The notes beneath the pieces are model-generated. The model worked only from the letters and a program-made list of their open reading frames with translations, had not been told where the DNA came from and ran no database searches. Below, piece after piece: positions 4,899 to 52,778 of a DNA stretch of 64,000 bases. Numbering within the stretch: position 1 is the stretch's first letter; every line of letters starts with the position of its first letter. Source of the stretch: Bacilli bacterium (GTDB lineage: Bacteria > Bacillota_I > Bacilli_A > RF39 > UBA660); NCBI GenBank assembly GCA_017460745.1, contig JAFUAL010000014.1, positions 924 to 64,923 on the forward strand. Reading direction: 5' to 3'. The position numbers and the translations under genes are program-made.

Positions 4899-7064
<2,166 letters not shown>

Positions 7065-7068
<4 letters not shown>

Positions 7069-9365: not shown

Positions 9366-9373
9366 GAGTTGTT

Positions 9374-24809: not shown

Positions 24810-24958
24810 TTATATATATCTAAATTGTAAACTATATAGTTTATAATATTCTTATTGATATGCTTAAATAATAAAAAAACATATAATATATCAAAAAAGT
24901 TGTGAAAAATGCTTGATTATTTGCAACTTTTTTTATACAATTATTGTGGGTGGTAAAA

Positions 24959-25243
24959 ATGTCTAAAAGAAAGATTGTAGAAGAGATTTCAGAGGAGTAT
25001 AAAGAAAGACTTGAAAGACTAGATAGTCTAGAACAAGAGTTTGTTGATTCTGTTGTTAAGTTAAGAAAAGATAAAAAATTAACTCAACAAGAGGTTGCAG
25101 ATGATGCAAGTGTAATTAGAGAAACAATTGCAAGAATTGAAAATCGTATTACATCACCTCAAGTTAATACTTTACTTAAAATTCTTGAACCATTTGGTTA
25201 TACAATTAAAATTACTAAAATAAGTAAGAAAAAAGAAAATTAA
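24959..25243 (+). CDS. XRE-family helix-turn-helix DNA-binding protein
   Basis: HTH LTQQEVADDASVIRETIARIENRITSPQVNTLLKI. RBS GGGTGG precedes ATG 24959. Confidence 0.6.
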   Translation: MSKRKIVEEISEEYKERLERLDSLEQEFVDSVVKLRKDKKLTQQEVADDASVIRETIARIENRITSPQVNTLLKILEPFGYTIKITKISKKKEN

Positions 25244-25257: not shown

Positions 25258-25674
25258 TTAATTTTCTTTTTCTATATAACCTTGAGTTTTAATTTCTTGT
25301 TCTAATTCAGAGTTACTTATATATATATCACTTATTCTAGATAATACTGTTTCTTCTTTTCCGTCTTTAATAAATAAAACTATGTTTGTTTCATCAAAAG
25401 TAAAGATTTTTTTTAATGATTCTAGTTCATCATCATTTAATTTAACAGTATTTAAATAATAAATATTAATTTTATTATCATTTGCTACATCTTTTAAATT
25501 GTTTTTTAAAACTTTTCCTTCATCATTATCAGTTAAATATAGAACGAAACTTTCTTTATTATCTAACATCTGATTTAAATTTTTTATATTTATATTTTTT
25601 AAATAATTATTAGAACAAGCACAGCTTAATAGTAATATTGTAACAAGAAATAATATTTTTTTCTTCATAAACAC
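25258..25674 (-). CDS. Small lipoprotein (only minus-strand gene in the window)
   Basis: Lipobox LLLSCACSNN after a signal peptide. 138 aa. Confidence 0.55.
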   Translation of the reverse strand: MFMKKKILFLVTILLLSCACSNNYLKNINIKNLNQMLDNKESFVLYLTDNDEGKVLKNNLKDVANDNKINIYYLNTVKLNDDELESLKKIFTFDETNIVLFIKDGKEETVLSRISDIYISNSELEQEIKTQGYIEKEN

Positions 25675-25758: not shown

Positions 25759-26433
25759 ATGAAATATGTAAAGTATTTAATGCTATGTTTTTTATTTTGT
25801 ATTACTTTAAATGTTAAAGCACTTGACAGTTGTACAACAGATGAAATGAATAGACTTAAAGAATTAGCAGGTAATGTTGAATTTAAATATAACTATGAAA
25901 TAAGTAATGAATATATTGCAGAGAATGCCGCTGAAGAAAATTTTGTAGAAGGGGTATTTAAAATACAAGTTTTAAATCATAATGAGGATTTAAGATATGT
26001 TCTTCAATATGATGGTTCCGAATTTGAAATAAATGGTAATGATTTAAGTAGTTTTAGTTTTGATGAAGGAGAAACAATTACTTTTAAAATATATTCATAT
26101 ACTACTAATTTATGTACTCACAATATGTTAAAAACTTATACTATAAAATTACCTTATTATAATCAATATTATCATTATAATAAAGATAAATGTGAAAGTA
26201 ATCAAGAATTTGAATATTGCAAAGAATATTTAGATAAATATACTGGTAAATCAATTTCAGAGATTGACGAAGAATTTGAAAAAAATAAAAATGATGGTTT
26301 AAATATTGTTTCTGAATTACCTAAAAATAATATTGTAATAATTATAATTTCCCTAATAGTAGTTTTAGGATTAGGAATAGGTGGAGTTGTTGTTTATAGC
26401 CAATACAAGAAAAGAAAAAAAGATGATTTATAG
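25759..26433 (+). CDS. Secreted Cys-rich protein with C-terminal TM anchor and basic tail (paralog A1)
   Basis: Signal peptide ...TLNVKA/LDSC, four conserved Cys (CTHNML...CESNQEFEYCKEY), a C-terminal TM IIISLIVVLGLGIGGVVVY, then KKRKKDDL. It is a paralog of 28082-28765. Confidence 0.55.
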   Translation: MKYVKYLMLCFLFCITLNVKALDSCTTDEMNRLKELAGNVEFKYNYEISNEYIAENAAEENFVEGVFKIQVLNHNEDLRYVLQYDGSEFEINGNDLSSFSFDEGETITFKIYSYTTNLCTHNMLKTYTIKLPYYNQYYHYNKDKCESNQEFEYCKEYLDKYTGKSISEIDEEFEKNKNDGLNIVSELPKNNIVIIIISLIVVLGLGIGGVVVYSQYKKRKKDDL

Positions 26434-26448
26434 TATAGTGGTGATAAT

Positions 26449-28062: not shown

Positions 28063-28081
28063 GAAGAAAGGATAAGATTAT

Positions 28082-28765
28082 ATGAGAAAAATTAAATATA
28101 TGTTAGGATTATGTTTATTCTTTACAGTTTTAAATGTTAAGGCAATTGATGCATGTACTAGTGAAGAAATGTCAAGACTTAAGGAGTTAGCTAATAATGT
28201 TGAAATTAAGTATGACTATGAATTATTCGATGATGAATACGAAGATGATAATGGAAACACTGTTAATACAGAAAATAAGTTTGCTCAATATAAATTTACA
28301 GTTTTGAATACTAATGATGATTTAAGAATAGCATATTCTATCGGTAATGAAAGCGAGAAAAAAACAACTAAGGAAGCAATTGAAAACGAAATCTTTAATG
28401 AAGGAGATCATCTAAGATTTGCAATTTATGCAAGAACAAAAAATTTGTGTATTGATAAAATATTAAGGACAGTAGATATAAAACTTTCTTATTATAATAA
28501 TTGGTATTCTGAAAACGAAGAAAAGTGTGAAGAATACAAAGAATTTAAATATTGTAAACAATTTCTTGAAAAAAATGTTGATAAAGATACTATAGAAAAA
28601 GAATTTAAGAAATATTCTCAAGATGTGAATAAAGAAAAACGTAGTAAAATATGGAATAATTTTGTTAATAATTATTTATTTAAAATATTAATTGGTATTG
28701 CTGTTGTTGGTGGAGGAGTAGCAGTCTTTATCATTAGAAGAAGAAAAATGTTGGAAGGATTATAG
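28082..28765 (+). CDS. Secreted Cys-rich protein with C-terminal TM anchor (paralog A2)
   Basis: Same architecture as A1: signal peptide ...LNVKA/IDAC, conserved Cys pattern, C-terminal TM, then RRRKMLEGL. Confidence 0.55.
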   Translation: MRKIKYMLGLCLFFTVLNVKAIDACTSEEMSRLKELANNVEIKYDYELFDDEYEDDNGNTVNTENKFAQYKFTVLNTNDDLRIAYSIGNESEKKTTKEAIENEIFNEGDHLRFAIYARTKNLCIDKILRTVDIKLSYYNNWYSENEEKCEEYKEFKYCKQFLEKNVDKDTIEKEFKKYSQDVNKEKRSKIWNNFVNNYLFKILIGIAVVGGGVAVFIIRRRKMLEGL

Positions 28766-28769
28766 TAAT

Positions 28770-31181
28770 ATGAAAAAGTTTATAAAAGGTTTTCTTGTAG
28801 TATCTTTGTTATTTGGTATATTTTTAGTATCTTTTAACACTTTTGCAGATGATGCTTCTGCGGACAGAGGCGATTTAAGGTGTACACCTGAGTATAAGAA
28901 TGTTAAATGTTGGGAACATGATGATAATAGTGATGGTAAAGTAGATAGAGTTACAATTCCAGTTACTGTAACATCTAGTAGCGGAAACACTTATACACTT
29001 ACAAAGGTTGCAGAAAAAACTCTTGATGAGGGAACTGTCAAAATTCATTTTGAAGTAACAGGTGATGGTTTTACCACGATTACTCACACAACCGAAACAC
29101 CATATGCTGATATTGCGATTTTGCTTGATTATTCAGGTTCGTTTTCAAGCCATGCATCTAGTGCAAAAGCGGCTATTAAGGCTTTTTCAAAAGAATTTTT
29201 TAGTAAAAATACAGATGGTGATTTACGTTATCAAATTGCTTATGCTCAGTTTAATGAAGCATTAGGTGACGATAATAAAACAAAAAAAGTTTCAAATTAT
29301 ATATCCAGTATGGATAATTATACTTTTAGTTGGCCTGGATTATCTGAAGATAAACATTCAGTAGTTAATGATGGTTTATATGTAGTATGGAGAGATATTC
29401 TTGGGGAAGCTACTAGTGGCAAAAGAAGTGATGTACCATCATACCTTATCGTGGTAAGTGATGGTGGTTTTAGAAATTATGGTTCTTATGCAAAGACTCA
29501 TATGACAAAATATAAAAAAGATTGTGGTTCAAGTGGAAGTCTGGGTGCTGAAAAAGGGCATGATGAAATGGAAGATGAAGCTGATATAATAAAAAATACA
29601 TATAATACTACTATAATGGGAATTATTTATAATAATGATAAAACATGTTATGATCATGCGGATAGGTCTGAAGATATGAATGCTATATTGAGCTCTCCGA
29701 ATAATTTAGTTAAAATGTGGGATAACCTTGGAGATACTTCGGAATTGGAATGCGATGAAATCGAAGACAAAGCATGGTGTTTAGCGTTTAATATGATTTA
29801 TAAACAAATTACAACTGGAGAAACTACTACTTATGATCAAATAGTTGCAAGTGGTATGGATTATTATGGCGAACATTTTAGAACAGGTGGAACTGTAAAA
29901 AAATCATTTAATATAAGAAAAGAGCAAGGTGCATCACAACCTTATAAATCAAAATCATTTAAGGTTAGTATAGATGAGACAGTACCAGCAGGATGGTATC
30001 CAACAAATGATGGTTTTGAAGGTAAAATTAGAATTGGAACTGAAGAGTTAACAATTCCTCGTGATAGTAACGTTAATCCTGAAATATATTGGAAACCGAA
30101 TCAACCAGAAAAAGAATGTGGCGTTGGAATAAATTATCCAGGTTCAAAATTTGTAAATACGGTAGAAGATATTTATAGTATTGTTTGTACTGAAGAGTTT
30201 GAAGGTCCACATAAAATAAATGATGGAGTGACACCAATAGAGGGAATGTATGGTTTTTCATCAACTCTTGATTTTAAAACAAATGCAAAATGTACATATC
30301 GATTCGACCAAGCAGAATATAATTCTATAAAAGCAGATTTGGAGGCACAAATAGCAAAGGCAGAAGCAGAATTGACAGAAGAAGAAAAAGAATTTGAAAT
30401 AGCATCTCTTCAACGTCAATTGCAAGATCTAGAAGATAGAAGAACAGCTTATTATAATAAGGTTGATACTACTTATAACAATACTAGTTTTTTACATACA
30501 TATTCAAGTAGTTTTTATGATATAGAAGCATCTTTAGAAGTAACAAGTACAAAATCAACTAAGACGGTTCTATTTGAAGAAGAGGAAAGAAGTGGTGGAG
30601 AAGTTGATTGTAGTGGTTCAAAAGAAAATAGAACATGTACAATGAATGCAGAGAAAAAAATGTATTTACCTATTAGTTGTTTAGATCCAAGTACAGGAAA
30701 TCAGTATGATACGTTACACGATAATTGTATATCGGGCGGTAGAAAATTTTATCCTCCTAAAAATGAAGGCTCTGGACATGCTACGCTGTTTGCAAAACAT
30801 GTAACATACCTTTCATTAGATGTTGAAGCAGGTGGTTCAAAATGTGATTATGGTATGGAAGAGATAAGAGATATATTTTATCGTCAAATAGATGTTGCAG
30901 ATCCCTTTGTTCAAAATACGGCAGGCTCAAGAGCAATAGGAAGAAACTTCCAAAATAATGATTTGAAATATGATTTTGTTAGAATAATAGATGCAAATAT
31001 CTGGGATGGAGAGTATGAATATTTATTCCAGTTAGGAAAAACAGATATTTTAGATGTCAAAAATGAAACTATTGGTGATAGCGCTAAAGTAAAAAGTTAT
31101 TTAGGTGAAGGATGTAGCTTAGACTCAAATAGCAACAAAATTATTTGTCCATTGGTAAGAGAACTACGAAATATGGGATAA
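28770..31181 (+). CDS. Secreted large vWA-domain protein (paralog B2), putative adhesin
   Basis: Signal peptide, GDLRCTPEYKNVKC, vWA with MIDAS ILLDYSGSFSS, the conserved EIYWKPNQPEKECGVGINYPGS block, and a coiled-coil segment. 803 aa. Confidence 0.6.
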   Translation: MKKFIKGFLVVSLLFGIFLVSFNTFADDASADRGDLRCTPEYKNVKCWEHDDNSDGKVDRVTIPVTVTSSSGNTYTLTKVAEKTLDEGTVKIHFEVTGDGFTTITHTTETPYADIAILLDYSGSFSSHASSAKAAIKAFSKEFFSKNTDGDLRYQIAYAQFNEALGDDNKTKKVSNYISSMDNYTFSWPGLSEDKHSVVNDGLYVVWRDILGEATSGKRSDVPSYLIVVSDGGFRNYGSYAKTHMTKYKKDCGSSGSLGAEKGHDEMEDEADIIKNTYNTTIMGIIYNNDKTCYDHADRSEDMNAILSSPNNLVKMWDNLGDTSELECDEIEDKAWCLAFNMIYKQITTGETTTYDQIVASGMDYYGEHFRTGGTVKKSFNIRKEQGASQPYKSKSFKVSIDETVPAGWYPTNDGFEGKIRIGTEELTIPRDSNVNPEIYWKPNQPEKECGVGINYPGSKFVNTVEDIYSIVCTEEFEGPHKINDGVTPIEGMYGFSSTLDFKTNAKCTYRFDQAEYNSIKADLEAQIAKAEAELTEEEKEFEIASLQRQLQDLEDRRTAYYNKVDTTYNNTSFLHTYSSSFYDIEASLEVTSTKSTKTVLFEEEERSGGEVDCSGSKENRTCTMNAEKKMYLPISCLDPSTGNQYDTLHDNCISGGRKFYPPKNEGSGHATLFAKHVTYLSLDVEAGGSKCDYGMEEIRDIFYRQIDVADPFVQNTAGSRAIGRNFQNNDLKYDFVRIIDANIWDGEYEYLFQLGKTDILDVKNETIGDSAKVKSYLGEGCSLDSNSNKIICPLVRELRNMG

Positions 31182-31251
31182 GTAATAAAAGATAATAAAA
31201 AATTCTTGATTATCAAAAAGAATTATTGTATAATCAAATAAGATAGGAGGT

Positions 31252-31839
31252 ATGTTTACGAAAGTAGCAATGTGGGCTGTCTTCATATTCCTACTTGGTT
31301 TATTTGGTGTAGTATTAATTAATACATTTGGTGTTATTACTACAACTAATCAACAAGATTACACTTTAGTTAAAAATGCAGTTGAAGCTGCAATGAATGA
31401 TTCAATTGATTGGGCATCATATAGAACAGGATTTTATTTGTGTACAGATAAAACTGGTGATGGAGAAGGTATGAGAACATTCACTAGTAAAGATGAATAT
31501 AAAGTTATTCTTAATAGTGATTTGATAACACATGAAGGTGATGCAATAACAGACAAGAATGCTCCTGATTCAAAATGTGCTTTATTGATGGCAGAATACA
31601 AATTAAATAAAGATGTATTTGTTGAAAGTTTTATAAGAAGATTTGCCAATAATGTAAATAACAATAAAAGTTATCAAGTAACAATTCAAGAAGTAATTGA
31701 GTATCCTCCTAAGGTAAGTGTAAGGATTGATACTTTAAATACTTATAATTCTGTTGAATCACGAACAGAGGAATTTAATTTAAATCCAGATTATAGCATC
31801 AGAAATCAAATTGATGCAATATTAGAAGAAAAGAGTTAG
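31252..31839 (+). CDS. Membrane-anchored protein, possibly a TadE/pseudopilin-like pilus-assembly component
   Basis: N-terminal TM MWAVFIFLLGLFGVVLI followed by NAVEAAMNDS, which is weakly TadE-like. Located directly upstream of cpaB. Confidence 0.3.
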   Translation: MFTKVAMWAVFIFLLGLFGVVLINTFGVITTTNQQDYTLVKNAVEAAMNDSIDWASYRTGFYLCTDKTGDGEGMRTFTSKDEYKVILNSDLITHEGDAITDKNAPDSKCALLMAEYKLNKDVFVESFIRRFANNVNNNKSYQVTIQEVIEYPPKVSVRIDTLNTYNSVESRTEEFNLNPDYSIRNQIDAILEEKS

Positions 31840-31850
31840 AGAGGGAGAAT

Positions 31851-32612
31851 ATGAAAAAATTAAAACAAATTTTATCAAACAAAAATACTGTAACACTTGT
31901 AGGCGCAGTATTAATAGTTCTTGTATTATATGTTTTTTATAACATAAAAGTTAATCAAGCAACAACACCTATAAGGGTTCCTTATGCAATTCAACCAATT
32001 GCAGCAAGGACAAAAGTTACAAAGGATATGATTGGATATCTTGAAATTACACAATCTGCCTTAAAGGGAGATATCTATACACATGAAAATCAAATAATTA
32101 ATAATGTATTATATACTAGATATGAAATTCCAACAGGTAGTTTATTTTATGTAGATGCATTATGCGAAGAAAAGGATTTACCAGATTCTTGGATGCTTCA
32201 AATGGATGACGGAATGGTAGCATATAATTTTGATGTTACAATGAAATCAACATACGGTAATTCAATTTATCAAGGAGATAAGATAGATTTATATTTTAGA
32301 GGAAGAGATGATACTGGATTAGTTCTAGTTGGAAAATTCTTAGAAAATGTAAAGGTTTTAATTGTAAAAGATTCATCTGGACGTAATGTTTTTGAAAATA
32401 CTACTGAAGTTGGTACTCCTAGTCAGATGATTTTAGAAGTAACTGAAGAACACCATTATTTATTAAGAGCAGCTGAGAAAATTAATAATGTTGAAATTAT
32501 TTTAGTTCCAAGTGGAACGACACTAGAAAATAATACAAATGAAAAGGTACAAACATTAACTAGTGAAGAAGTTAAACAATATATAGAAACCAAATCAAAA
32601 ACAATGCAATAG
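31851..32612 (+). CDS. cpaB: Flp pilus assembly protein CpaB/RcpC-like
   Basis: N-terminal TM, then an SAF-like region (PIRVPYAIQPIAARTKVTKDMIGYLEI). Size and position upstream of the Tad ATPase are typical. Confidence 0.6.
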   Translation: MKKLKQILSNKNTVTLVGAVLIVLVLYVFYNIKVNQATTPIRVPYAIQPIAARTKVTKDMIGYLEITQSALKGDIYTHENQIINNVLYTRYEIPTGSLFYVDALCEEKDLPDSWMLQMDDGMVAYNFDVTMKSTYGNSIYQGDKIDLYFRGRDDTGLVLVGKFLENVKVLIVKDSSGRNVFENTTEVGTPSQMILEVTEEHHYLLRAAEKINNVEIILVPSGTTLENNTNEKVQTLTSEEVKQYIETKSKTMQ

Positions 32613-32619
32613 GTGAGTT

Positions 32620-34110
32620 ATGAATCAAGGTATAAACGTATATGATTTAACACCTAAAAGTAACGAAAACAAAACCAATACTGAGATAAACGATAGTTTA
32701 TTTTCCAGTATTGATTTTGGGCCTTTAAAGGCATATCTAGATGATGATAACATTACCGATATTTCTTATAGTAATAATGGACAAGTTTGGCTTAAATCAC
32801 TTGATCGTGGAGTTTACCGTGTAGATAATCCTGGTATTAATAATGATTTAATGGAAAAAATTGCATTCCAATGTGCAAATATCATGGGGAAAACCTTTAA
32901 TATGGCAAGTCCACTTCTTGATAGTGAATCAAGTGAACTTCGTATGAATTTTATTCATGATTCAATTGCTAGAAATGGAATTGCAGCGGTTTTCAGAAAA
33001 ACACCAGCTAAGATAAGGCTTGAAAAAGAAAAAATTGTTGAACAAAAATATATTACGACAGGCATTCATGATTTTTTAATTGAATGTGTTAAAGGACATT
33101 GTAACATAATTGTAAGTGGTGAAACTGGTTCAGGAAAAACTGAGCTTGTTAAGTACCTTGCAAGTCATACTGCAACGAATGAAAAAATAATTACAATTGA
33201 AGATACTTTGGAACTTCACTTAGATAAAATATTTCCGGAACGTGATATAGTTTCAATGAAGACTAATAATATAGCATCATACTCTGACGTTTTAGTTGGT
33301 TGTATGAGACAGAATCCAAAATGGATATTACTTTCCGAGGTTCGTAGCGCTGAAGCAGTTACGGCAGTTCGTAACTCTATTTCATCAGGTCATAATATTT
33401 TGTCAACAATCCATGCTGATAAAGCGTCAAGTATTCCTTATCGTTTATATAGTTTGTTGGAATCTAATATTGATGTTGAACAATTCATGACAACAATTTA
33501 TAGATATATTCAATTAGGTATACATGTTCGTGCTAGATATGATAAGCAAACTGGTAAGTTTATGAGAGAAGTATGCGAGGTGTGTGAGTTCTTTGTTAAT
33601 GAAGAAAATCAACCAGAGTATAATATTATATATAGAAAAAATGTTGATGGAACGGAAGTAGTAAATGGACCTTCAACACATTTAATAGAATATTTAGAAA
33701 GTCAAGGGGTTGACTTAACTAAAAAGAGTTTTGATAATATTAAAATTCCATCACCATTTGAAGAACCTTTAATCAATGATGATATGGAAGAAGATTTAGA
33801 ACAAACCTCAAAGCAAGAAGAAACAAAAGACAATGGTCATCAAGATGCAAGTCAACAAAATATTAATCAGTTGAATAATAGTAAGCAAGTTGTAAGTCAG
33901 CAAATGCAAGCAAGACCGAATAATGTAAGGCCTACTCAAAATGTTCAGCCAATGCAAAATAGACAACCAACAATGCAATCTAGCATAAATAACTTAAATA
34001 TAGTACCAAATGGAGTAAGACCTAATAATTTTAATAGTAATCAAAACATTCAATCTCCAAACAATATGAGAGCAAATGCTCAACCATTTATTGAAGATGA
34101 GATGTTATAG
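32620..34110 (+). CDS. cpaF: Tad/Flp pilus assembly ATPase CpaF/TadA with an unusual Q/N/P-rich C-terminal extension
   Basis: Walker A GETGSGKTE, Walker B/Asp box ILLSEVRSAEA, His box STIHADKA. The last ~100 aa are low-complexity and Q/N/P-rich (QNVQPMQNRQPTMQ...). Confidence 0.85.
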   Translation: MNQGINVYDLTPKSNENKTNTEINDSLFSSIDFGPLKAYLDDDNITDISYSNNGQVWLKSLDRGVYRVDNPGINNDLMEKIAFQCANIMGKTFNMASPLLDSESSELRMNFIHDSIARNGIAAVFRKTPAKIRLEKEKIVEQKYITTGIHDFLIECVKGHCNIIVSGETGSGKTELVKYLASHTATNEKIITIEDTLELHLDKIFPERDIVSMKTNNIASYSDVLVGCMRQNPKWILLSEVRSAEAVTAVRNSISSGHNILSTIHADKASSIPYRLYSLLESNIDVEQFMTTIYRYIQLGIHVRARYDKQTGKFMREVCEVCEFFVNEENQPEYNIIYRKNVDGTEVVNGPSTHLIEYLESQGVDLTKKSFDNIKIPSPFEEPLINDDMEEDLEQTSKQEETKDNGHQDASQQNINQLNNSKQVVSQQMQARPNNVRPTQNVQPMQNRQPTMQSSINNLNIVPNGVRPNNFNSNQNIQSPNNMRANAQPFIEDEML

Positions 34111-34124
34111 GAAGGTGTGATGAT

Positions 34125-35021
34125 ATGGAATTTATAATAATATTATTAATTGTTATATTTGTTGTTTTATATCGAAAGAGTAATGGTGAATCAGTTTATA
34201 AATTTGTTTCAACAAGTATCGGAGATATATATGACAAATATGCACCATATTCGTTTAAAAATATAAGAGAAAGATGTAAGGAGATGGGACTTGAGTATAC
34301 ACCAAGACAATATACAGTTCAAGTAATTGTTTTTGCATCTCTTGCCTTCATTATCTCATATTTGTATTTTTACAATATAGTTATATCTTTCTTGTATGTA
34401 GTGGCAGTTGTTTCAATAATACCATATTTAGCATATCTTAGATGTAAAAGATTGTATAGTGAATTTATATTTGAACAAGTTCAAGTATATGTAACTAACA
34501 CGATTATGGAATTTCAGACTACTCAATCATTCGTAAAAGCTCTTGAAGGAGTTTATAATTCAGGAGTTTTGGAAGAACCTTTAAAAACAGATATTAAAGT
34601 TATGATTGATTTGGCATATCATAATGGAGATGTTATGGAATCAATTACATATATGAATAGTAAATATGATTTTTATATGACTAGAAATATGCACCAATTA
34701 TTTTTACAAGTTACCCGAGAAGGTGCACATGATACCATTCAAGTACTTGATAATATGTTACTTGATGTTGACCAATTAGTTGAAGGAGTTTATCAAGATA
34801 GAATGAATCGACAAGCCTTCCATAAATCATTTATTACATATGGTTTGATGTTATATTTGATGGTAATGTTAATTCAATGGTTAATTGGAAAAGAAACATA
34901 TATAAGTTTGGTTAATAGCAATATAATAATGCAAATTGGACTTCATATAGTAATACTTTTTAATAGTTATTTTCTTCTATCAGGAGAAAAATATTATAAC
35001 GAGAATGTAGGTGCTGAGTAA
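34125..35021 (+). CDS. tadB: TadB-like (GspF/T2SSF-family) pilus assembly membrane protein
   Basis: 298 aa with an N-terminal TM, a cytoplasmic domain and C-terminal TMs. Position directly after cpaF. Confidence 0.55.
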   Translation: MEFIIILLIVIFVVLYRKSNGESVYKFVSTSIGDIYDKYAPYSFKNIRERCKEMGLEYTPRQYTVQVIVFASLAFIISYLYFYNIVISFLYVVAVVSIIPYLAYLRCKRLYSEFIFEQVQVYVTNTIMEFQTTQSFVKALEGVYNSGVLEEPLKTDIKVMIDLAYHNGDVMESITYMNSKYDFYMTRNMHQLFLQVTREGAHDTIQVLDNMLLDVDQLVEGVYQDRMNRQAFHKSFITYGLMLYLMVMLIQWLIGKETYISLVNSNIIMQIGLHIVILFNSYFLLSGEKYYNENVGAE

Positions 35022-35809
35022 TGGAATTTGCAATTATAATTATAATAGTAGTTTTTGTTCTTAGTTATAGTGGTTCACTTAGTACAAAACAAATATATGA
35101 AGATAATAAAACATTATTTGGATTACTAAAAGAAAAAGATTATGATTTCTTAGTTAAGGCTAAGTATGGAAATGAAGTAAATCCCGATGACTATTTTGAA
35201 AAAAGAATACAACAATTTATTTTAGAATTAGTTGTTGTTGCCGCTGTTTTAATGTTTAATTTTACATGGATTAATTTAATAATCGGTTTAATTATTTTAG
35301 TTGTTTTATATAGAAGTCAATATTCATCATTAAAAAGTTTTTATAAGAAAAATTTAACAGCAATTGATCAAAATTTACCATATTATTTGAAGAGTATTGA
35401 AATACTTGCTCAACACTATACTATACCAGTTGCAATATCAAGATCAATTGAAACAGCTCCTGATATGTTTAAAGAAGGACTTACAGAAATGATTAAGCAG
35501 ATTGATGCAGGTGATTCATCAATTAATCCATATCTTGAGTTTGCAAGAAAGTATCCAGTTGGTGATTCTCTTCGTATGATGAGACTTTTATATCGTTTAA
35601 GTATTGGTGCACAGGAGAATAAGCAAGAGCAATTATCAGTTTTTTCTAAGAGCGTATCAAGTCTTCAAAATAAAGCAAGAGAGATGAAATATGCTTCAAG
35701 ACTTAATACTATGGAAAAAAAGACAATGACAATGTTGATAGTAACTGGTGGTGGATCAATGTTGGTTTTATTCTTTGCAATGGTAATGATGATGGCAAAT
35801 TGGGGGTAG
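35021..35809 (+). CDS. tadC: TadC-like (GspF/T2SSF-family) pilus assembly membrane protein
   Basis: 262 aa with similar topology, start-stop coupled (ATGA) to tadB. Confidence 0.55.
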   Translation: MEFAIIIIIVVFVLSYSGSLSTKQIYEDNKTLFGLLKEKDYDFLVKAKYGNEVNPDDYFEKRIQQFILELVVVAAVLMFNFTWINLIIGLIILVVLYRSQYSSLKSFYKKNLTAIDQNLPYYLKSIEILAQHYTIPVAISRSIETAPDMFKEGLTEMIKQIDAGDSSINPYLEFARKYPVGDSLRMMRLLYRLSIGAQENKQEQLSVFSKSVSSLQNKAREMKYASRLNTMEKKTMTMLIVTGGGSMLVLFFAMVMMMANWG

Positions 35810-35901
35810 TAAATAAATGTAAATTTTAATAAAAGTTATTGAAAAAAAAATAAAACTATGGTACATTATAAATGTACAATTGGAAAGGAGAAATATAATT
35901 T

Positions 35902-36111
35902 ATGAAAGAAGCAAGTGGAGAGTTATCAATGACATTAATTGTTATAATTGCTGCTGGTGTTATTGTTATGATTTTTGCTGCATTTTGGCCTCAAATTCAA
36001 GATTTTATTAATCAAAAATGGACTCAGTTTGATGGTCAAGCAGGTACACCAATGATTGTTACACATGGAAGTATTGAAATTCCTGGTTATAGTGTCGTTT
36101 TAGGAAAATAG
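35902..36111 (+). CDS. Flp-family prepilin-like protein (divergent)
   Basis: MKEASGELSMTLIVIIAAGVIVMIF resembles Flp ..DESGATAIEYGLIAALIAV... It is 69 aa with an RBS GGAGAAA. The Glu normally at +5 is replaced by Thr. Confidence 0.5.
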   Translation: MKEASGELSMTLIVIIAAGVIVMIFAAFWPQIQDFINQKWTQFDGQAGTPMIVTHGSIEIPGYSVVLGK

Positions 36112-36129
36112 TTTATAGGAGAGTGAAGT

Positions 36130-36579
36130 ATGAGGGAAGCCGTTGGTAGTTCTATTTTGTTCTATATTATTTTGATGTTTATTGGTATTTTTATTGTTTT
36201 TATTGCTATTATTATGAATTATGCTGCTGCATATCGTACTAATAATTATGTGGTTAATATGATAGAGCAAAGCGAAGGACAAGATAATTTTAATTCTGAT
36301 TTAGTTTCGTATTTACAGAGTAAAAATTATAATAATGGATTGATTGTAACTTGTTCTCATAATGAAAATGGTTCAGTTTTTCATATTAAAACGTATGTTA
36401 CGTTTTACATTCCTATAATTGAAGCTGGTTTTCCTTTAGAAATCAATAACGATACTAAAACAATATATACTAAATATAATAATAATTTTTGTAATAGTAG
36501 TGGTGGCTACTATGATATGAATTATCCATCAGTTGGATGTTGGGCAGGTTCTGGCACAACTGGAATTAGCTGTTATTAA
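36130..36579 (+). CDS. TadE-like pseudopilin
   Basis: MREAVGSSILFYIILMFIGIFIVFIAII followed by NYAAAYRTNNYVV matches the TadE-like N-terminal pattern. 149 aa. Confidence 0.5.
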   Translation: MREAVGSSILFYIILMFIGIFIVFIAIIMNYAAAYRTNNYVVNMIEQSEGQDNFNSDLVSYLQSKNYNNGLIVTCSHNENGSVFHIKTYVTFYIPIIEAGFPLEINNDTKTIYTKYNNNFCNSSGGYYDMNYPSVGCWAGSGTTGISCY

Positions 36580-36611
36580 CAGCTTTTTTTCTTTAATGTG
36601 GAGGTGAAAAT

Positions 36612-37622
36612 ATGAATATAATAGTTACAAATAAATATAAGGATTTAATTTATAGTGCTAATATAGAAATATTAAAAGAATTAAATGGAGTATTCAAGGT
36701 TAGTCAAATCGTTAATAGTTTTAATTCTATATTCTATAAAAAAATAATAATAGATGCGACTGCTTTAGAGAATTTTCCAAAAGAAAATGTGTTAAAAGAA
36801 CTTGCTGCAGCATTTGAAAAGGATAAATTGATTTTACTTTTGCCACCTGATAATCCACCACCAAAAAAGTTTTTATCTTTTTTAGTTAGTATTAATATTT
36901 ATAATTTTACTGACAATGCAAGTGGATTATTAGAATTAGTTCATAAGAGTAATAAGATAAATGATGTAAAAAATTATATAGAAGAGAGAGAAGAAAAAAT
37001 TGCTGAGACTAAAAATGAAGAAAGTACAATTCATGATGAAAATGATTTACTACCTCAACAAGTAATTTTAGGATTTAATGGTGTAACTGGTAATTCTTAT
37101 GTAACTGAAATAATTTATAGTATAAAGAAGGAATTAGAAGAAAGATATCAGAAGAAAGTATTAGCAATAGAGGTTGAGAAAAGAGATTTTGTTTTTTATA
37201 ATTCTTCTAGTATGATGTCTATAGGTAAAGATAAAGTAAATATCTTTTTACAAAATAATTTAAATGACTACGATTTTATTTTAGTAGATTTAAGTAATTA
37301 TAATAATACTACAATTTGTAATGATGTTATTTATTTAGTTAATCCGTCATTATATGAAGTAAATAAAATAATGATGAAAGATAGAACAGTATTTATGAAG
37401 TTGAAAGGTAAAAAAGTGGTTTTTTCTAATAGTTTACTTACAAGTAATGATGTAAATCAATTTGCAAGAGAAGCCGGAATAAGTGTTTATTATAACCTAA
37501 CTCCTATTAATGATAGAGGAACTAATGATAATATTAGCAAATTACTTACTAAAATGGGAGTTCTTGATAACGAATCAAGTGATAAATCAACTAAAAAGGG
37601 ATTATTTGATATTTTCAAATAG
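36612..37622 (+). CDS. TadZ/CpaE-like protein with degenerate ParA/MinD motifs
   Basis: An N-terminal receiver-like region, then ILGFNGVTGNSYVT in the position of a Walker A motif (the conserved Lys is absent), then YDFILVDL, which is Walker-B-like. Confidence 0.35.
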   Translation: MNIIVTNKYKDLIYSANIEILKELNGVFKVSQIVNSFNSIFYKKIIIDATALENFPKENVLKELAAAFEKDKLILLLPPDNPPPKKFLSFLVSINIYNFTDNASGLLELVHKSNKINDVKNYIEEREEKIAETKNEESTIHDENDLLPQQVILGFNGVTGNSYVTEIIYSIKKELEERYQKKVLAIEVEKRDFVFYNSSSMMSIGKDKVNIFLQNNLNDYDFILVDLSNYNNTTICNDVIYLVNPSLYEVNKIMMKDRTVFMKLKGKKVVFSNSLLTSNDVNQFAREAGISVYYNLTPINDRGTNDNISKLLTKMGVLDNESSDKSTKKGLFDIFK

Positions 37623-37671
37623 TTGCTTTTTTTTAATGTTTATTGTATAATCTACGTAGGTGAGGCGGATT

Positions 37672-37989
37672 ATGTGTAATAGTGATATGCAAATGCTTGT
37701 TGATATAATTATAAAGCTTTTAGATGTCGTACATTTTTTTGTACCTATTGTTCTTATAATATTTTGTACAGTTGATGTTTTTAAAATAATTGTTTCTAAA
37801 AAGGAAGACGAAGTTAAAAAACTACGAAATGATGTATTTTGGAAAATAGTTTATGCAATTGTTATATACTTGATTCCATTTTTAGTACCATTTATTTTAA
37901 GTGCTGCTGATAAAATATTGCCAATGGAGTATGATAATAGTTGGAAAGAATGTTATGATTATGTCAAAAAAAATCAAAATCATAACTAA
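37672..37989 (+). CDS. Small two-TM membrane protein, paralog 1 of a D-[MV]-F-K family (VirB2/TrbC-like topology)
   Basis: TM1 FFVPIVLIIFCTVDVFKIIVS, a charged loop, TM2 IVYAIVIYLIPFLVPFIL. RBS AGGTGAGG. Confidence 0.5.
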   Translation: MCNSDMQMLVDIIIKLLDVVHFFVPIVLIIFCTVDVFKIIVSKKEDEVKKLRNDVFWKIVYAIVIYLIPFLVPFILSAADKILPMEYDNSWKECYDYVKKNQNHN

Positions 37990-38057
37990 TTTGTCAAAAA
38001 GACTTGATTTATTAACTAATATTTAGTATTATAATTTTAGATATGGAGGAAGATTTT

Positions 38058-38522
38058 ATGTTTCAAATATTAGATTTTTGTTCTGCTGATATGCAAGTAC
38101 TAGTATCTGCTGTAAAGACAGTATTTACTTTAATACAAATAGCTATTCCTGGAGTTTTAATTGTTCTTGGTACAATTGATATGTTTAAGGCAATGGCAAG
38201 TGGAGATGAAAAGAAGACAAAAGAGGCTCAAAGAACTTTTGTAAGACGTATGATATATGCAGTTGTTGCTTTCTTAATACCATTTATCATCCGTTTAGTA
38301 TTTAGTTTCATTGCTAATAATATTGGTGCTGATGAAGCTAAAGCTGGTCAAAATTCTTATAATGAATTCTTTGCATGTTGGAATGGAGCTAAATCATCTA
38401 GTGGAAGTGGTAGCGATTCAGGCAGTACTGGCGATTGTAATGTATGTTGGAAAGATGGACAATCTTATACTGGTGTATCAAGAGACAATTGTGAAAATTA
38501 CATGCAAGGTTATTGCTCATAG
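38058..38522 (+). CDS. Small two-TM membrane protein, paralog 2, with Ser/Gly linker and Cys-rich C-terminal tail
   Basis: IAIPGVLIVLGTIDMFKAMASGDEKK...RRMIYAVVAFLIPFIIRLVFSF, then SSSGSGSDSGSTGDCNVCWKDG...CENYMQGYCS. RBS GGAGGAAG. Confidence 0.5.
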   Translation: MFQILDFCSADMQVLVSAVKTVFTLIQIAIPGVLIVLGTIDMFKAMASGDEKKTKEAQRTFVRRMIYAVVAFLIPFIIRLVFSFIANNIGADEAKAGQNSYNEFFACWNGAKSSSGSGSDSGSTGDCNVCWKDGQSYTGVSRDNCENYMQGYCS

Positions 38523-38582
38523 TATTAAGTTAGAAAATTATTTGAAGTCAGATGACTTCATTTTTCTTTAAGAGGTGAATTT

Positions 38583-38993
38583 ATGTTTATTTTAGAATGT
38601 ACAGATACTGTTCAATTATGTTATAATGCTAGAAAAATTTTAATATTAGTTAAAGAATTTATTAAAATATTACAATGGAGTATTCCAGTACTACTAATTG
38701 TCTTAGGAACATGGGATATGTTTAAAGCTGTAACCAAGGGTGATGATCAAAAAGCAGTTCAAGATGCAACAAAAGCATTTATTAGAAGATTAACATCAGG
38801 TGTAATAGTTTTTTTAGTACCCTTTATAATTAGACTTGTATTAGGATTTGTTGAAGACAATATGCTTTCAAGTAGTAATGGAGATGTATCTGCCACTTCT
38901 TGGATAGGTTGTTGGAATAATGTTGATGATAAGAATTCAAGTTATTTTGCAGGATGTAATAATATTTATCAAGGTAGTTCAAGTACTTCATAG
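38583..38993 (+). CDS. Small two-TM membrane protein, paralog 3, with Cys-containing C-terminal tail
   Basis: SIPVLLIVLGTWDMFKAVTKGDDQK...RRLTSGVIVFLVPFIIRLVLGF, then a tail WIGCWNNVDDKNSSYFAGCNN. RBS AGAGGTGA. Confidence 0.5.
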   Translation: MFILECTDTVQLCYNARKILILVKEFIKILQWSIPVLLIVLGTWDMFKAVTKGDDQKAVQDATKAFIRRLTSGVIVFLVPFIIRLVLGFVEDNMLSSSNGDVSATSWIGCWNNVDDKNSSYFAGCNNIYQGSSSTS

Positions 38994-39106
38994 TATTTGA
39001 ACTTTTTAATTGATATTTTATATAGTCAATTAGTGTCAAGTAATCCTAAAAAAATATTGAAATAGCAGTATTTTTTTTATATAATATTAGGCGTTAGGAG
39101 GATTAT

Positions 39107-41826: not shown

Positions 41827-42093
41827 ATGAAAAATGAGAATGAATATATTATAAATGATGAAGAGTTTGATTTAATATGTAAATATGTAAAAATCAGATA
41901 TGAATCAAAAGTAAGCCAAAGAGAGTTAGCTAAAAAAATAGGAATAGCTCAATCTACTATTGCTAGAATGGAGAAGAATATACATTCTATGTCAATTGGA
42001 AATTTTACTAAATTATTATCAGCACTTGGTTACAAATTAGAAATTATAGAGAAGGAGGATCAACATGGAAAACAAAATAATAGCATTAACTAA
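41827..42093 (+). CDS. XRE-family HTH protein, copy 1
   Basis: HTH SQRELAKKIGIAQSTIARMEKN. It is 99% identical over 76 aa to copy 2 (43093-43341). Confidence 0.6.
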   Translation: MKNENEYIINDEEFDLICKYVKIRYESKVSQRELAKKIGIAQSTIARMEKNIHSMSIGNFTKLLSALGYKLEIIEKEDQHGKQNNSIN

Positions 42094-42895
42094 ATCATTT
42101 GAAGATGAAAAAATAAGAACAGTATGGAATAAGGAAGAAGAAAAATATTATATTAGTATAGTTGATATGATTAAAGTATTAACAGAAAGCACTGAACCTA
42201 GGAAATATTGGAATTGGTTAAAGAATAAATTACTAAAAGAAGAAAATTTTGAAACGTCTAGTATTACTAGACAGTTGAAATTAAAAGCAACAGATGGAAA
42301 AATGAGATTAACGGATGTTGTAGATATTGAAGGAATGTTTAGAGTTATTGAATCTATTCCATCAAAAAAAGCTGAACCTATTAAGTTATGGCTTGCTCAC
42401 CTTGGAAAAGAAAGAATAGATGAAGAATATGATCCTGAGATAACAATTAATAGAGCACTTGAAGCATATCGAAGAAAAGGTTACTCTGATGATTGGATTA
42501 ATCAAAGATTGAAAGCAATAGATGCCAGAAAAGAATTTACTGATGAATTAAAAAATAATGGTATTGAAAGTAGTAAGGATTTTGCTATACTAACAGATTT
42601 ATTAACTAAAACATGGAGTGGATATTCAACAAAAGAGTATAAGTCATATAAAGGATTAACTAAAGAAAACTTAAGGGATAATATGACTAATATGGAATTA
42701 GTATTAAATATGCTTGCAGAGGCAACCTCTACAGAAATAGCAAAATCAAATAATGAGAAAAGCAAAGAAAATGCAAGAAGTTCAGTAATTGAAGGTGGCA
42801 CTATTGCTAAAAACACAAGAGAACAAATAGAGCGAAAAACAGGAAAGAAAATAGTAACAAATATTAACAATAAAAATATAAAGCAAATAAAATAA
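42065..42895 (+). CDS. RhuM-family (Bro-N/virulence-protein RhuM-like) protein, copy 1
   Basis: The N-terminus IRTVWNKEEEKYYISIVDMIKVLTES matches the RhuM family signature (ETVWLTQAQMAELF...). Confidence 0.55.
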   Translation: MENKIIALTKSFEDEKIRTVWNKEEEKYYISIVDMIKVLTESTEPRKYWNWLKNKLLKEENFETSSITRQLKLKATDGKMRLTDVVDIEGMFRVIESIPSKKAEPIKLWLAHLGKERIDEEYDPEITINRALEAYRRKGYSDDWINQRLKAIDARKEFTDELKNNGIESSKDFAILTDLLTKTWSGYSTKEYKSYKGLTKENLRDNMTNMELVLNMLAEATSTEIAKSNNEKSKENARSSVIEGGTIAKNTREQIERKTGKKIVTNINNKNIKQIK

Positions 42896-43092: not shown

Positions 43093-43341
43093 ATGAAAAA
43101 TAAGAATGAATATATTATAAATGATGAAGAGTTTGATTTAATATGTAAATATGTAAAAATCAGATATGAATCAAAAGTAAGCCAAAGAGAGTTAGCTAAA
43201 AAAATAGGAATAGCCCAATCTACTATTGCTAGAATGGAGAAGAATATACATTCTATGTCAATTGGGAATTTTACTAAATTATTATCGGCACTTGGTTACA
43301 AATTAGAAATTATAGAGAAGGAGGCCAAAAATGAAAAATAA
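43093..43341 (+). CDS. XRE-family HTH protein, copy 2
   Basis: Identical to copy 1 except E4K and a different C-terminal tail. Confidence 0.6.
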   Translation: MKNKNEYIINDEEFDLICKYVKIRYESKVSQRELAKKIGIAQSTIARMEKNIHSMSIGNFTKLLSALGYKLEIIEKEAKNEK

Positions 43342-44188
43342 CAAATTAGAAACTATTTCAAATTTATTTGAAGGTCAGGAAATAAGAAGTATATGGGATA
43401 AAGAGAAAGAAGAATATTATTTTAGTGTAGTAGATGTTATAAGTGCATTAACTGATGCAACTATACCTAAAAGATATTGGAGCGATTTAAAACGAGAGCT
43501 AATAAATGAAGGTAGTCAGTTGTACGAAAAAATCGTACAACTGAAGTTAAAGTCCTCAAAGGATGGTAAAAATTATTTAACTGATACACTAGATACTGAA
43601 GGTATATTTAGACTTATTGAATCAGTTCCTAGTCCTAAGGCAGAACCATTTAAATTATGGTTAGCCAAACTTGGTAGACAAAAGGTTGATGAAATATTTG
43701 ATCCTTCTAAAGGAATTGATGAGATGATAGATTTTTATTTAAAAAAAGGATACACATTAGAATGGATTGAAGCTAGAATTAAAGCTATTATTGATCGAAA
43801 AAGGCTTACTAAAGTATGGAATGATGGTGGTGTTAAAGAAGGAAAAGAATATGCAATGCTTACTAATGCTATTTATAAAGAATGGTCTGGTATGACTGCA
43901 TCAGAATATAAAGCATTTAAAGGTATAAGAAAAGAAAATTTAAGGGATAATATGTCTAGAATTGAAGTATTATTAACTGACTTAGGTGAATTAGCAGCTC
44001 ATGATATTGCTGAAGAGGAGCACCCCCAAGGTTTTAGAGAAAATGTAAAAGCAGCTAAGCGTGGTGGAAAGGTTGCAAAAGATGCTAGAAATTCATATGA
44101 AAAAGCAACAAAAAAGTCAGCAATTTCAAAAAATAATTCTTTAAAGTATAAATATATAGATGAAAACAATAAAATAGAAAAAAGGTAA
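43331..44188 (+). CDS. RhuM-family protein, copy 2 (diverged, ~50% identical to copy 1)
   Basis: QEIRSIWDKEKEEYYFSVVDVISALTDA and the conserved KENLRDNM block are shared with copy 1. Confidence 0.55.
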   Translation: MKNNKLETISNLFEGQEIRSIWDKEKEEYYFSVVDVISALTDATIPKRYWSDLKRELINEGSQLYEKIVQLKLKSSKDGKNYLTDTLDTEGIFRLIESVPSPKAEPFKLWLAKLGRQKVDEIFDPSKGIDEMIDFYLKKGYTLEWIEARIKAIIDRKRLTKVWNDGGVKEGKEYAMLTNAIYKEWSGMTASEYKAFKGIRKENLRDNMSRIEVLLTDLGELAAHDIAEEEHPQGFRENVKAAKRGGKVAKDARNSYEKATKKSAISKNNSLKYKYIDENNKIEKR

Positions 44189-50825: not shown

Positions 50826-51803
50826 ATGTGTGAAAATGTATTGTTTTTAAGAATATTAAGTTTTTTTTATACTGCAATGAGTTTTTTAAGATTTACTATT
50901 CCAATTATTTTAATAATAAAATTAACTTTTGATATATATAAAGGGATAATAAATACAAATGATAATTCATTTAAAGAGAAAGTAAGTCGTAGAATAATTG
51001 CATGTGTTATTATCTTTTTAGTACCAACAATTATAAATGTTTTTTTAGGATTAATTGAAACAGTAACGGGGATGGCATTTAATTATTCAGAGTGTACTGC
51101 TAATATAAAAAATATAGATTATTATGTTGAGAAAAGAGAACTTGAGGAAAAACTTTTATATGAAAAAGAAAGTAGTGAAGCATATCAAAAGTATCAAAAT
51201 GCTATTAATGATTTAACCAAAAAGATACAGGAAAGTTCAAGTAGTACAGGAAGCGGAGATGCAACAGCTATTAGAATAGGTGAAAAATATAATGTTACCG
51301 ATAAACAATTAGAAAATATTGCAAAAGTATGCCAAAGAGAACAAGGACGACCAGAGGGAGCTGCTGCAGAGGCTGAGTTAATGATAAATAAATATGTTTT
51401 AAGTGGATATAGTGGTTCTTTCTATGACTATTTATTTAATTCTAGTAATGGAAATTGGTGGCATCCAATTAAGGCTGGTAACTATGGTTCAACTAAATTA
51501 AAACCTGAAATAAAAGAAGCAGTTAGAAAAGTAGTAGTTGAGGGTCAAAGAAAGTATCCAGCTTACATAAATGAACATGATTGTATTAGTTGTGGAGATG
51601 TTTTATATATAAAAACAGATGGCCAAAGTGCAAATAAAAATAACAGAAGTGATTTTGTTCAAGATAAAACATTTGTTTATACAAAATATAAACAAAATTC
51701 TAAAGTTAAGTATTGGATATTCTATGCTTTTCCAGATGAAAAAAGTGATCCATTTGGTTATACTTATGATGCAAAAGATAAGTTAGCCGCGATCAGTAAG
51801 TAG
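50826..51803 (+). CDS. Two-TM D-x-Y-K family N-terminal domain fused to a ~230-aa C-terminal domain of unknown function (tandem paralog 1)
   Basis: The N-terminus FTIPIILIIKLTFDIYKGIINT...RRIIACVIIFLVPTIINVFLGL is homologous to the three small proteins at 37.6-39.0 kb. A SSSTGSGD linker follows, then a C-terminal domain with conserved Cys/His (KVCQREQG...NEHDCISCG). Confidence 0.55.
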   Translation: MCENVLFLRILSFFYTAMSFLRFTIPIILIIKLTFDIYKGIINTNDNSFKEKVSRRIIACVIIFLVPTIINVFLGLIETVTGMAFNYSECTANIKNIDYYVEKRELEEKLLYEKESSEAYQKYQNAINDLTKKIQESSSSTGSGDATAIRIGEKYNVTDKQLENIAKVCQREQGRPEGAAAEAELMINKYVLSGYSGSFYDYLFNSSNGNWWHPIKAGNYGSTKLKPEIKEAVRKVVVEGQRKYPAYINEHDCISCGDVLYIKTDGQSANKNNRSDFVQDKTFVYTKYKQNSKVKYWIFYAFPDEKSDPFGYTYDAKDKLAAISK

Positions 51804-51809: not shown

Positions 51810-52778
51810 ATGTGTGAGAATGTATTATTTTTAAGAATATTAAGTTTTTTTAATACTGCAATGAGTTTTCTAAGATTTGCTATTCCAATTATTTTAATAA
51901 TAAAATTAACTTTAGATATATATAAGGGAATAATAAATACAAATGATAATTCATTTAAAGAGAAAGTAAGTCGTAGAATAATTGCATGTGTTATTATCTT
52001 TTTAGTACCAACAATTATAAATGTTTTTTTAGGATTAATTGAAACAGCAACAGGAATGTCATTTAATTATTCAGAGTGTATTGCTAATATAAAAAATATA
52101 GAATATTATGTAGAAAAAAGAGAACTTGAAGAAAAACTTTTATATGAAAAAGAAAGTAGTGAAGCATATCAAAAGTATCAAAATGCTATTAATGATTTAA
52201 CCAAAAAGATACAGGAAAGTTCAAGTAGTACAGGAAGTGGAGATGCAACAGCTATTAGAATAGGTGAAAAATATAACGTTACCGATAAACAATTAGAAAA
52301 TATTGCTAAAGTATGTCAAAGAGAACAAGGACGACCAGAGGGAGCAGCCGCAGAGGCCGAGTTAATGATAAATAAATATGTTTTAAGTGGATATAGTGGC
52401 TCTCTTTATGACTATTTATTTAATTCTAGTAATGGTCGTTGGTGGCATCCAATTAAGGCTGGTAACTATGGCTCAACTAATTTAAAACCGGAGATAAAAG
52501 AAGCAGTTAGAAAAGTAGTAGTTGAAGGTCAAAGAAAATATCCGGCTTATATAAATGAACATGATTATTTTGGTGATATATCTAAAATTGTTACAAATGG
52601 TCAAAGTACAAGTAGTAGTTCTAGTATAAAAACACGTACAAATTATGTAAAAGATAACACCGTTATTTATAATAAAATGGGTTCAGTTTATACTTTTTAT
52701 ATGTTTCCAGATGATAAAAGTGATCCATTTGGTTATACTGTTAAGGCTAAAGAAAAAGTAGATGCAATGAATAAATAG
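51810..52778 (+). CDS. Tandem paralog 2 of the same fusion protein, with divergent C-terminal ~75 aa
   Basis: Near-identical to paralog 1 over ~245 aa, then diverges (NEHDYFGDISKIVTNGQSTSSSSS...). Confidence 0.55.
   Translation: MCENVLFLRILSFFNTAMSFLRFAIPIILIIKLTLDIYKGIINTNDNSFKEKVSRRIIACVIIFLVPTIINVFLGLIETATGMSFNYSECIANIKNIEYYVEKRELEEKLLYEKESSEAYQKYQNAINDLTKKIQESSSSTGSGDATAIRIGEKYNVTDKQLENIAKVCQREQGRPEGAAAEAELMINKYVLSGYSGSLYDYLFNSSNGRWWHPIKAGNYGSTNLKPEIKEAVRKVVVEGQRKYPAYINEHDYFGDISKIVTNGQSTSSSSSIKTRTNYVKDNTVIYNKMGSVYTFYMFPDDKSDPFGYTVKAKEKVDAMNK

Follow-up and report, generated by a model that had tools for sequence, protein, structure and literature searches.

What are three small membrane hairpin proteins, with the layout of pilins of type IV secretion systems (T4SS), doing behind a Tad-type pilus locus? 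The question is raised by a stretch of 64,000 nt, hereafter the window, from a Bacilli bacterium (GTDB lineage Bacillota_I; Bacilli_A; RF39; UBA660; GenBank assembly GCA_017460745.1, contig JAFUAL010000014.1, positions 924 to 64,923), in which genes for such proteins form an array at 37672-38993. Together with two related genes further downstream, the window contains five hairpin open reading frames (ORFs), p1 to p5, which fall into class A (p1), class B (p2), class C (p3), and class D (p4 and p5). The explanation that we favour, and to which we give about an even chance, is that they are disulfide-stapled, pilin-like hairpins that descend from a T4SS and present variable Cys-rich tails on the outside, and that their partner is either the Tad machine or a T4SS whose genes lie elsewhere.

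A first-pass annotation of the window had described three tandem paralogs. All three are ORFs on the + strand, and their paralogy is borne out by profile matches and by pairwise identities of 40% over 106 aa (p2 and p3) and 33% over 76 aa (p1 and p2). The p1 gene (37672..37989, +; 105 aa) has a ribosome-binding site, with GAGG preceding the ATG, and profile scores of 79-107 bits. Its product starts with MCNSDMQ and continues with a first transmembrane helix (TM1) that contains a Pro, DVFK, a basic loop, a second transmembrane helix (TM2) that also contains a Pro, and SWKEC, without a long tail. A longer version starting with GTG at 37660 is unlikely because the orthologs, which are present in about 23 loci for class A, begin at MCN. 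The p2 gene (38058..38522, +; 154 aa) has a GGAGG 8 nt upstream of its start, and an NCBI homolog likewise begins with MFQILD; its product carries a Ser/Gly linker and a tail with four Cys. The product of p3 (38583..38993, +; 136 aa) has two N-terminal Cys, a WIGCW motif, and a short Cys tail, and the Cys-rich tails of its orthologs reach about 300 aa. Cys-containing tails had been ascribed to the second and third paralogs, and both are present.

Alignments of the window proteins and their relatives revealed a common plan. After a short N-terminus, which has a conserved Cys, comes a long helix that holds TM1 with a conserved Pro and is closed by D-x-[FY]-K, a basic loop leads to R-R/K and to TM2 with a second conserved Pro, and a linker of 15-35 residues ends in x-W/F-x-x-C-W. 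The shared layout of TM1, a D[MV]FK loop, R-R, and TM2 proposed earlier was thus recovered, as TM1, D-[MVI]-[FY]-K, a basic loop, R-R/K, and TM2; the N-terminal Cys, the second Cys at a distance of 25-35 residues behind TM2 (xWxxCW), and the single Pro in each helix had been missed. Throughout the family, the motif D-x-x-K opens the loop, which is predicted to be cytoplasmic. In an AlphaFold2 model of p2 (pLDDT 74), helices span residues 10-48, 51-88, and 93-110.

None of the sequences of p1 to p5 contains a cleavable signal peptide, a basic n-region, or an h-region. The conserved N-terminal Cys directly follows the initiator Met in p1, p4, and p5, while p2 and p3 have 5-12 residues ahead of it. 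Processing at this Cys as in lipoproteins or at a signal peptide was ruled out, since n- and h-regions are missing and classes A and D begin with MC. A role of the hairpins as prepilin peptidase, suggested by the lack of a TadV-like gene in the Tad-like locus and by an Asp that is conserved where TM1 ends on the cytoplasmic side, was likewise ruled out: the motif departs from GxGD, a second Asp is missing, and some members, such as P0175, P0240, and P0209, have another residue in place of the Asp.

The direct matches of the window proteins to PF18895 (T4SS_pilin) have scores of 15.3 bits for p1, 21.1-22.1 bits for p2, and 21.5 bits for p3, at a gathering cutoff of 26.6 bits; p4 and p5 do not match. 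Weaker matches were obtained to DUF4134, to CagC, and to pilin-like NCBIfam families of integrative and conjugative elements (ICEs) of Mycoplasma. Single weak Pfam matches were not relied on, because the composition of a hairpin alone can yield E values of about 1e-4, as matches to G protein-coupled receptors (GPCRs) described below indicate. A family profile recovered 9719 cluster representatives at E<=1e-3, of which 3987 reach E<=1e-10. Among the best 141 family representatives, 62 match PF18895 at E<1e-3, the best with 1.5e-9 and some over the cutoff; one example is P0157, which matches the family profile with 1e-35 and has a PF18895 score of its own of 29.2 bits. A second profile was built from distant members, without the window clade. 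Most of its matches carry a precomputed PF18895 assignment, and in the window it matches exactly five ORFs, i.e. p1 to p5, with 70-107 bits. By transitive homology, the window proteins are diverged members of PF18895 and loosely VirB2-like.

The guess that they resemble VirB2/TrbC-type pilins therefore holds at the level of PF18895, and finds no support in matches to the canonical family PF04956 or to the solved pilins or in a cleavable signal peptide. The family itself is not novel, as it is already known as PF18895. The combination of these hairpins with a Tad-type locus and with fast-changing Cys-rich tails has not been described before.

Close relatives of the array proteins occur in T4SS gene clusters. 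On four metagenome contigs with 26% G+C, a small hairpin is the first gene of such a cluster (L026, 10001-20378; L027, 10001-20351; L028, 10001-20345; L029, 10001-20348). It is followed by the gene for a hairpin protein of 540-600 aa with a signal peptide, a Cys-rich ectodomain, and a C-terminal hairpin, and then by genes for a TrbL/VirB6-like protein of about 800 aa, a PrgI/VirB3-like protein, a split VirB4, an M23/lysozyme hydrolase of about 900 aa, and a coupling protein. The VirB4 of L026 matches the NCBIfam family VirB4_plasma with 3e-109. In BLASTP comparisons, the T4SS-linked hairpins share 39-45% identity with p2 and p3 (75-94 bits), with values of 39-43% for p2. Three of the four clusters share one chromosomal site (uvrA ... 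whiA ... htrA), so that they look fixed rather than mobile. Gram-positive T4SSs have been stated to lack VirB2 homologs, with the exception of Patescibacteria (PMC4027160, PMC12857230).

The loop of the hairpin has a net positive charge and both ends are acidic. The positive-inside rule therefore places both ends, and with them both conserved Cys, outside in the predicted topology. This prediction agrees with three further observations. All ten N-terminally extended proteins among the 141 family representatives examined have a signal peptide; in L024 (6377-7897) and L026 (10461-12269), one protein comprises a signal peptide followed by an ectodomain and, at its C-terminus, the hairpin; and the C-terminal payloads found in the family are extracytoplasmic enzymes.

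Of 365 family members, 340 have both conserved Cys. An even number of outer Cys was counted in 319 of these 340 proteins (94%), and in members with more than two outer Cys even numbers prevail over odd ones by 124 to 21; the count spans related sequences and yields no clean probability. An even-number bias is the expectation under full disulfide pairing, and the parity argues for disulfides. It also lends support to the earlier idea of disulfide-stabilised tails. Also in favour of disulfides, thioredoxin-fold, PedC-like lipoproteins are encoded divergently beside hairpin genes in L027 (9452-9859, -), next to the hairpin gene of the T4SS cluster and with a CSNC motif, and in L030 (3854-4267, -), with CSHC. 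The secreted proteins of the Tad-like locus (36130-36579 and 25759-31181) are also Cys-rich, and the pseudopilin-like protein (36130-36579) ends in a GCW motif that resembles that of the hairpins.

The array had been placed at the 3′ end of a Tad locus, in a window without a T4SS locus. This arrangement was seen and is conserved. The Tad-like locus (25759-37622, +) lies upstream of the array. For comparison, a hairpin-anchored set of 25 loci, 20 of them genome contigs, from uncultured Bacilli of rumen, rabbit, and human gut was inspected. The order Tad locus, two to four hairpins, ppdK is found in about 18 of the 22 informative loci of this set. The three DUF5411-anchored loci that are long enough to judge all have the same order, one of them at an identity of only 36%. 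For both anchor sets together, the array follows a Tad-like locus in about 21 of 25 informative loci. In L001 the array has stayed with the Tad locus even though ppdK is not the neighbour; here an amine oxidase-like gene and a gene for a polytopic membrane protein of 487 aa lie between the TadZ-position gene and the array (6543-9550).

The link between array and Tad locus is strong as synteny. A functional link, including co-regulation with the tad genes, is unproven, because four loci have the array without an adjacent Tad locus and p1 has a promoter-like site of its own. This site (37623..37651, +; TTGCTT, 17 nt, TATAAT) was read from the sequence as a consensus match only and falls under the −35 threshold of the scanner. 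Terminator-like hairpins with a T run are located between p2 and p3 (38543..38560, +) and at the end of p3 (38976..39003, +), where the latter parts the array from ppdK, which has a promoter-like site at 39057-39085.

Family membership, the T4SS context of relatives, the position behind the Tad locus, the conserved residues, the cysteine parity, and the payload fusions described below are the data on which our explanation is built; from them we infer the topology, the disulfides, polymerisation or docking, and the partner. The hairpin would insert into the membrane with both ends outside, and D-x-x-K would open its basic loop on the cytoplasmic side. The N-terminal Cys and the Cys after TM2, which in p2 are C8 and C106, would pair as a disulfide, stapling the outer ends of the hairpin, and further paired Cys would stabilise the variable tails on the cell surface. 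By analogy to the T4SS-linked relatives and to VirB2, the hairpins would be kept in the membrane as a pool of pilin-like or channel-lining subunits, which an envelope-spanning machine takes up or docks. Tandem paralogs with fast-evolving tails would supply surface variability. The machine could be either the adjacent Tad-type machine or a T4SS elsewhere in the genome.

Several points weigh against this explanation. All window proteins score below the PF18895 cutoff, and no match to PF04956 (TrbC/VirB2) at E<=1 and no sequence match to solved conjugative pilins were found. Spurious matches to TM5-TM6 of GPCRs, about as strong as those to PF18895, came up in the same searches, and a profile search of the PDB with the family profile retrieved only TM5-loop-TM6 segments of GPCRs, with E values of about 1e-4. 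We know of no PF18895 member that has been shown to form a pilus, and to our knowledge extensive disulfide chemistry is not a trait of gut anaerobes. The PedC-like thioredoxin-fold lipoprotein of the window, which is encoded divergently from the Tad-like locus (25258..25674, -) and is 34% identical to its L027 homolog, has lost the CxxC. VirB4, VirB6, and a coupling protein are absent from the 64-kb window and from the 10 kb past its 3′ end, where only housekeeping and sporulation genes were found; VirB4 is also absent from the loci of the window clade, a result that covers the loci alone and not whole genomes. In L019, L022, L023, and probably L025, an array of classes A and B is kept ahead of ppdK with no Tad locus next to it, and therefore the Tad adjacency may be inherited gene order and not function. 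In L019, the array is instead preceded (5855-9526) by a weak signal-peptidase-like gene (S26, under the cutoff), by genes for unassigned membrane or secreted proteins, and by a gene for a YetF-domain protein. Last, fusions to enzymes and to ectodomains of 400 aa suit an anchor better than a polymerising subunit.

This last point leads to the likeliest of the alternatives, in which the hairpin does no more than anchor or dock proteins at the membrane, never polymerises, and holds payloads at the outer face for envelope remodelling or adhesion, independent of Tad. We regard this as unlikely. The payloads speak for it. The first-pass annotation had noticed that the N-terminal domain recurs 12 kb downstream in a fusion with a large domain, and we found it there in two tandem copies among housekeeping genes, p4 (50826..51803, +; 325 aa) and its duplicate p5 (51810..52778, +; 322 aa). 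The two genes are 83-86% identical and the hairpin parts 94%, and the AlphaFold model of p4 has the hairpin as in p2. The C-terminal domain matches the fold of the SleB catalytic domain, a lytic transglycosylase fold, at about 12% identity, and contains an invariant E172 inside REQG, a putative counterpart of the catalytic Glu of SleB; it does not match the Pfam family Hydrolase_2 and is not recognised by any sequence library. The same SleB-like domain also occurs hairpin-free, fused to a C26 peptidase, in P0156. In the family as a whole, Cys-rich tails and SleB-like, NlpC/P60-like, and esterase domains, as well as N-terminal ectodomains, are combined with the hairpin, which bears out the earlier notion of a conserved hairpin with a varying C-terminal payload.

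Payloads at either end of the same hairpin are readily explained by an anchor, and so are the remoteness of p4 and p5, the loci that lack an adjacent Tad locus, and the transcription signals of the array, i.e. the promoter-like site of p1 and the terminator-like sites inside and after the array. In addition, the VirB1-type hydrolases of Gram-positive bacteria are all membrane-anchored (PMC12857230). On the other hand, a plain anchor would not need the near-invariant Cys pair, the two Pro, and the D-x-x-K that are found across thousands of clusters. Payload-free proteins make up 90 of the 141 family representatives, class A (p1) has no payload either, and it is the small payload-free form that heads the T4SS clusters. 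The pilin-like explanation also draws on selection: rough dN/dS values (ratios of nonsynonymous to synonymous substitution rates) of 0.29-0.50 for the hairpin and 0.75-0.86 for the tail suggest, with synonymous sites near saturation in this AT-rich clade and poor tail alignments, that the tails change faster than the hairpins.

Two further alternatives depend on the Tad-like locus and its composition. Its 5′ part encodes Cys-containing, C-terminally anchored proteins with signal peptides, which form a repeat (25759-26433 and 28082-28765, +); each is followed by a gene for a large secreted VWA-domain protein (26449-28062 and 28770-31181, +), and this 5′ part is conserved in related loci. Then come genes for a DUF5411 protein (31252-31839, +; PF17424, 1.6e-34), a CpaB/RcpC-like protein (31851-32612, +; PF16976, 3e-07), and a secretion ATPase of the TadA/CpaF-VirB11 superfamily (32620..34110, +; PF00437, 2e-27). 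In NCBIfam, the ATPase scores 114 bits with VirB11, 104 with TrbB, and 97 with TadA, each under its own cutoff, and the best PDB match is CpaF with 70.5 bits, compared with 62 for VirB11. Two polytopic membrane proteins of 298 and 262 aa (34125..35809, +) are assigned to the TadB/TadC position by layout only; they have no sequence match in Pfam, NCBIfam, or the PDB, and their position and length are strictly conserved among related loci. The Flp-like small pilin (35902-36111, +; weak match to Flp1_like) and the pseudopilin-like protein (36130-36579, +) both start with M[KR]EA[SV]G followed by a hydrophobic helix. The last gene of the locus (36612..37622, +) encodes a protein of 336 aa at the TadZ/CpaE position, also without a sequence match in Pfam, NCBIfam, or the PDB; it is present in all Tad-bearing loci save L024. 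A gene for a prepilin peptidase was not found in the locus (25759-37622).

The first of these alternatives is that the Tad-type machine has co-opted the hairpins from a T4SS as accessory subunits other than pilins, which could e.g. line or gate the membrane platform or guide the fibre through the wall. The array has kept its position after the TadZ-position gene over wide divergence, and in L001 in spite of the altered downstream neighbour. In L024, the TadC-position gene is followed (5569-8699) by a gene for a protein of 506 aa, in which a signal peptide and an ectodomain precede a hairpin at the C-terminus, and then by classes A and B; genes of the Flp-like, pseudopilin-like, and TadZ-position kinds are missing and would find no space, so that the hairpin gene stands in their place. 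Together with the similar scores of the ATPase for VirB11 and TadA/CpaF, this would fit an accessory subunit. We nevertheless judge it improbable: no such component is known from Tad systems, in some loci no Tad locus adjoins the array, the array may have transcription signals of its own, and fast-evolving tails suggest exposure at the surface and not a place in the machine core.

The second goes further. In these monoderm gut Bacilli, a Tad-type machine, with its ATPase on the TadA/VirB11 border and its TadB/C-like platform, would have taken over VirB2-like hairpins and would build or sheath a disulfide-stapled surface fibre or conduit without VirB4. We hold this to be distinctly improbable as formulated. 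If it were true, a Tad machine using hairpins would be a hybrid of type IVc pili and conjugative pili, and the L024 variant would be its extreme form.

Holins or other lysis proteins, which had been raised earlier as a possible refutation, and bacteriocin or immunity peptides are close to refuted and in our view very improbable: the proteins are small with two transmembrane helices, in p4 and p5 the hairpin comes with a murein hydrolase fold, and p2 has a very weak match to a YxzE-like bacteriocin (E 0.09), but no holin or lysis family matched in Pfam, NCBIfam, or PHROGs, the context is one of chromosomal housekeeping genes without a prophage and is conserved in synteny across the clade, and the relatives reside in T4SS clusters.

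The window as a whole is chromosomal, with about 25% G+C and genes such as gatA/gatB, ppdK, obg, lspA, rluD, and that for RNase J. GC skew is positive throughout (1-64000) and almost all genes are on the + strand, which is what a long stretch of leading strand should look like. Just upstream of the Tad-like locus lie a MazF/PemK-like toxin gene (24423-24809) and, behind it, a small helix-turn-helix-like ORF (24944-25243). Downstream of ppdK, two BRO-N domain proteins are encoded (42065-42895 and 43331-44188), with no other phage genes near.

The family comprises thousands of sequence clusters, and in low-GC Bacilli it heads chromosomal T4SS clusters. Beyond these clusters it has spread as well, since members stand beside a Tad-like pilus locus and occur in fusions with cell-wall hydrolases. 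Should the hairpins prove to be pilin-like subunits that are exposed at the surface and stapled by disulfides, they would give access to the question of how the secretion and pilus machines of monoderms get through the wall and establish contact. The variable tails would qualify as candidate adhesins or antigens of gut bacteria that are both abundant and uncultured; the window clade consists of uncultured low-GC gut Bacilli. If the hairpins work with the Tad machine, the apparatus would be a hybrid of a new type.

Among known systems, the SleB/CwlJ lytic transglycosylases of the spore cortex share only about 12% identity with p4 and p5, in which a pilin-like hairpin tether replaces the peptidoglycan-binding domain. 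Tad/Flp systems resemble the adjoining locus in having a CpaB-like gene, a TadA/CpaF-family ATPase, two platform-like proteins, a Flp-like pilin, and a pseudopilin-like protein, and differ from it in that the window locus is without a prepilin peptidase gene. The hairpins differ from Flp/Tad pilins in that they have two transmembrane helices and no class III leader, and we know of no Tad system that includes VirB2-like proteins. The conjugative pilins VirB2, TrbC, TraA, and TrwL have no sequence match to the window proteins, which lack a long cleaved signal peptide and belong to a monoderm host; in fold comparisons, many unrelated helical hairpins score as well as these pilins.

In the ICEs of Mycoplasma, as in the T4SS-linked relatives, the genes for a small hairpin (the pilin-like Mbov_0395) and for a hairpin-plus-extension protein (Mbov_0396/MMCAP2_0566) are paired beside that for a VirB4 of the same type; the NCBIfam entries of these hairpin families are NF045849, NF045889, and NF045848. 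The window proteins p1, p2, p4, and p5 match these NCBIfam families with 13-21 bits, at cutoffs of 40-90 bits; in contrast to the ICE genes, the window genes are not on an ICE, and mycoplasmas have no wall. In ICEA, CDS15 and CDS16, which adjoin the VirB4 gene, are required for transfer (PMC6030558). Gene order suggests that the two belong to the Mbov_0395 and Mbov_0396 types.

A further parallel is given by the PF18895 pilins of other systems. The window proteins score below the cutoff, are encoded next to a Tad-like locus and without a VirB4 gene anywhere in the 64 kb, have Cys-rich tails or enzyme domains, and have N-termini at or near the conserved Cys without a signal peptide. However, like the pilins of Patescibacteria and the products of the first genes of the monoderm T4SS clusters, they are two-helix hairpins with a short basic loop. 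The arrangement is also shared: Patescibacteria carry tandem arrays of 2-11 divergent PF18895/VirB2-like pilins, which are not always near virB4 (PMC12102498), and the window array likewise consists of tandem divergent paralogs.

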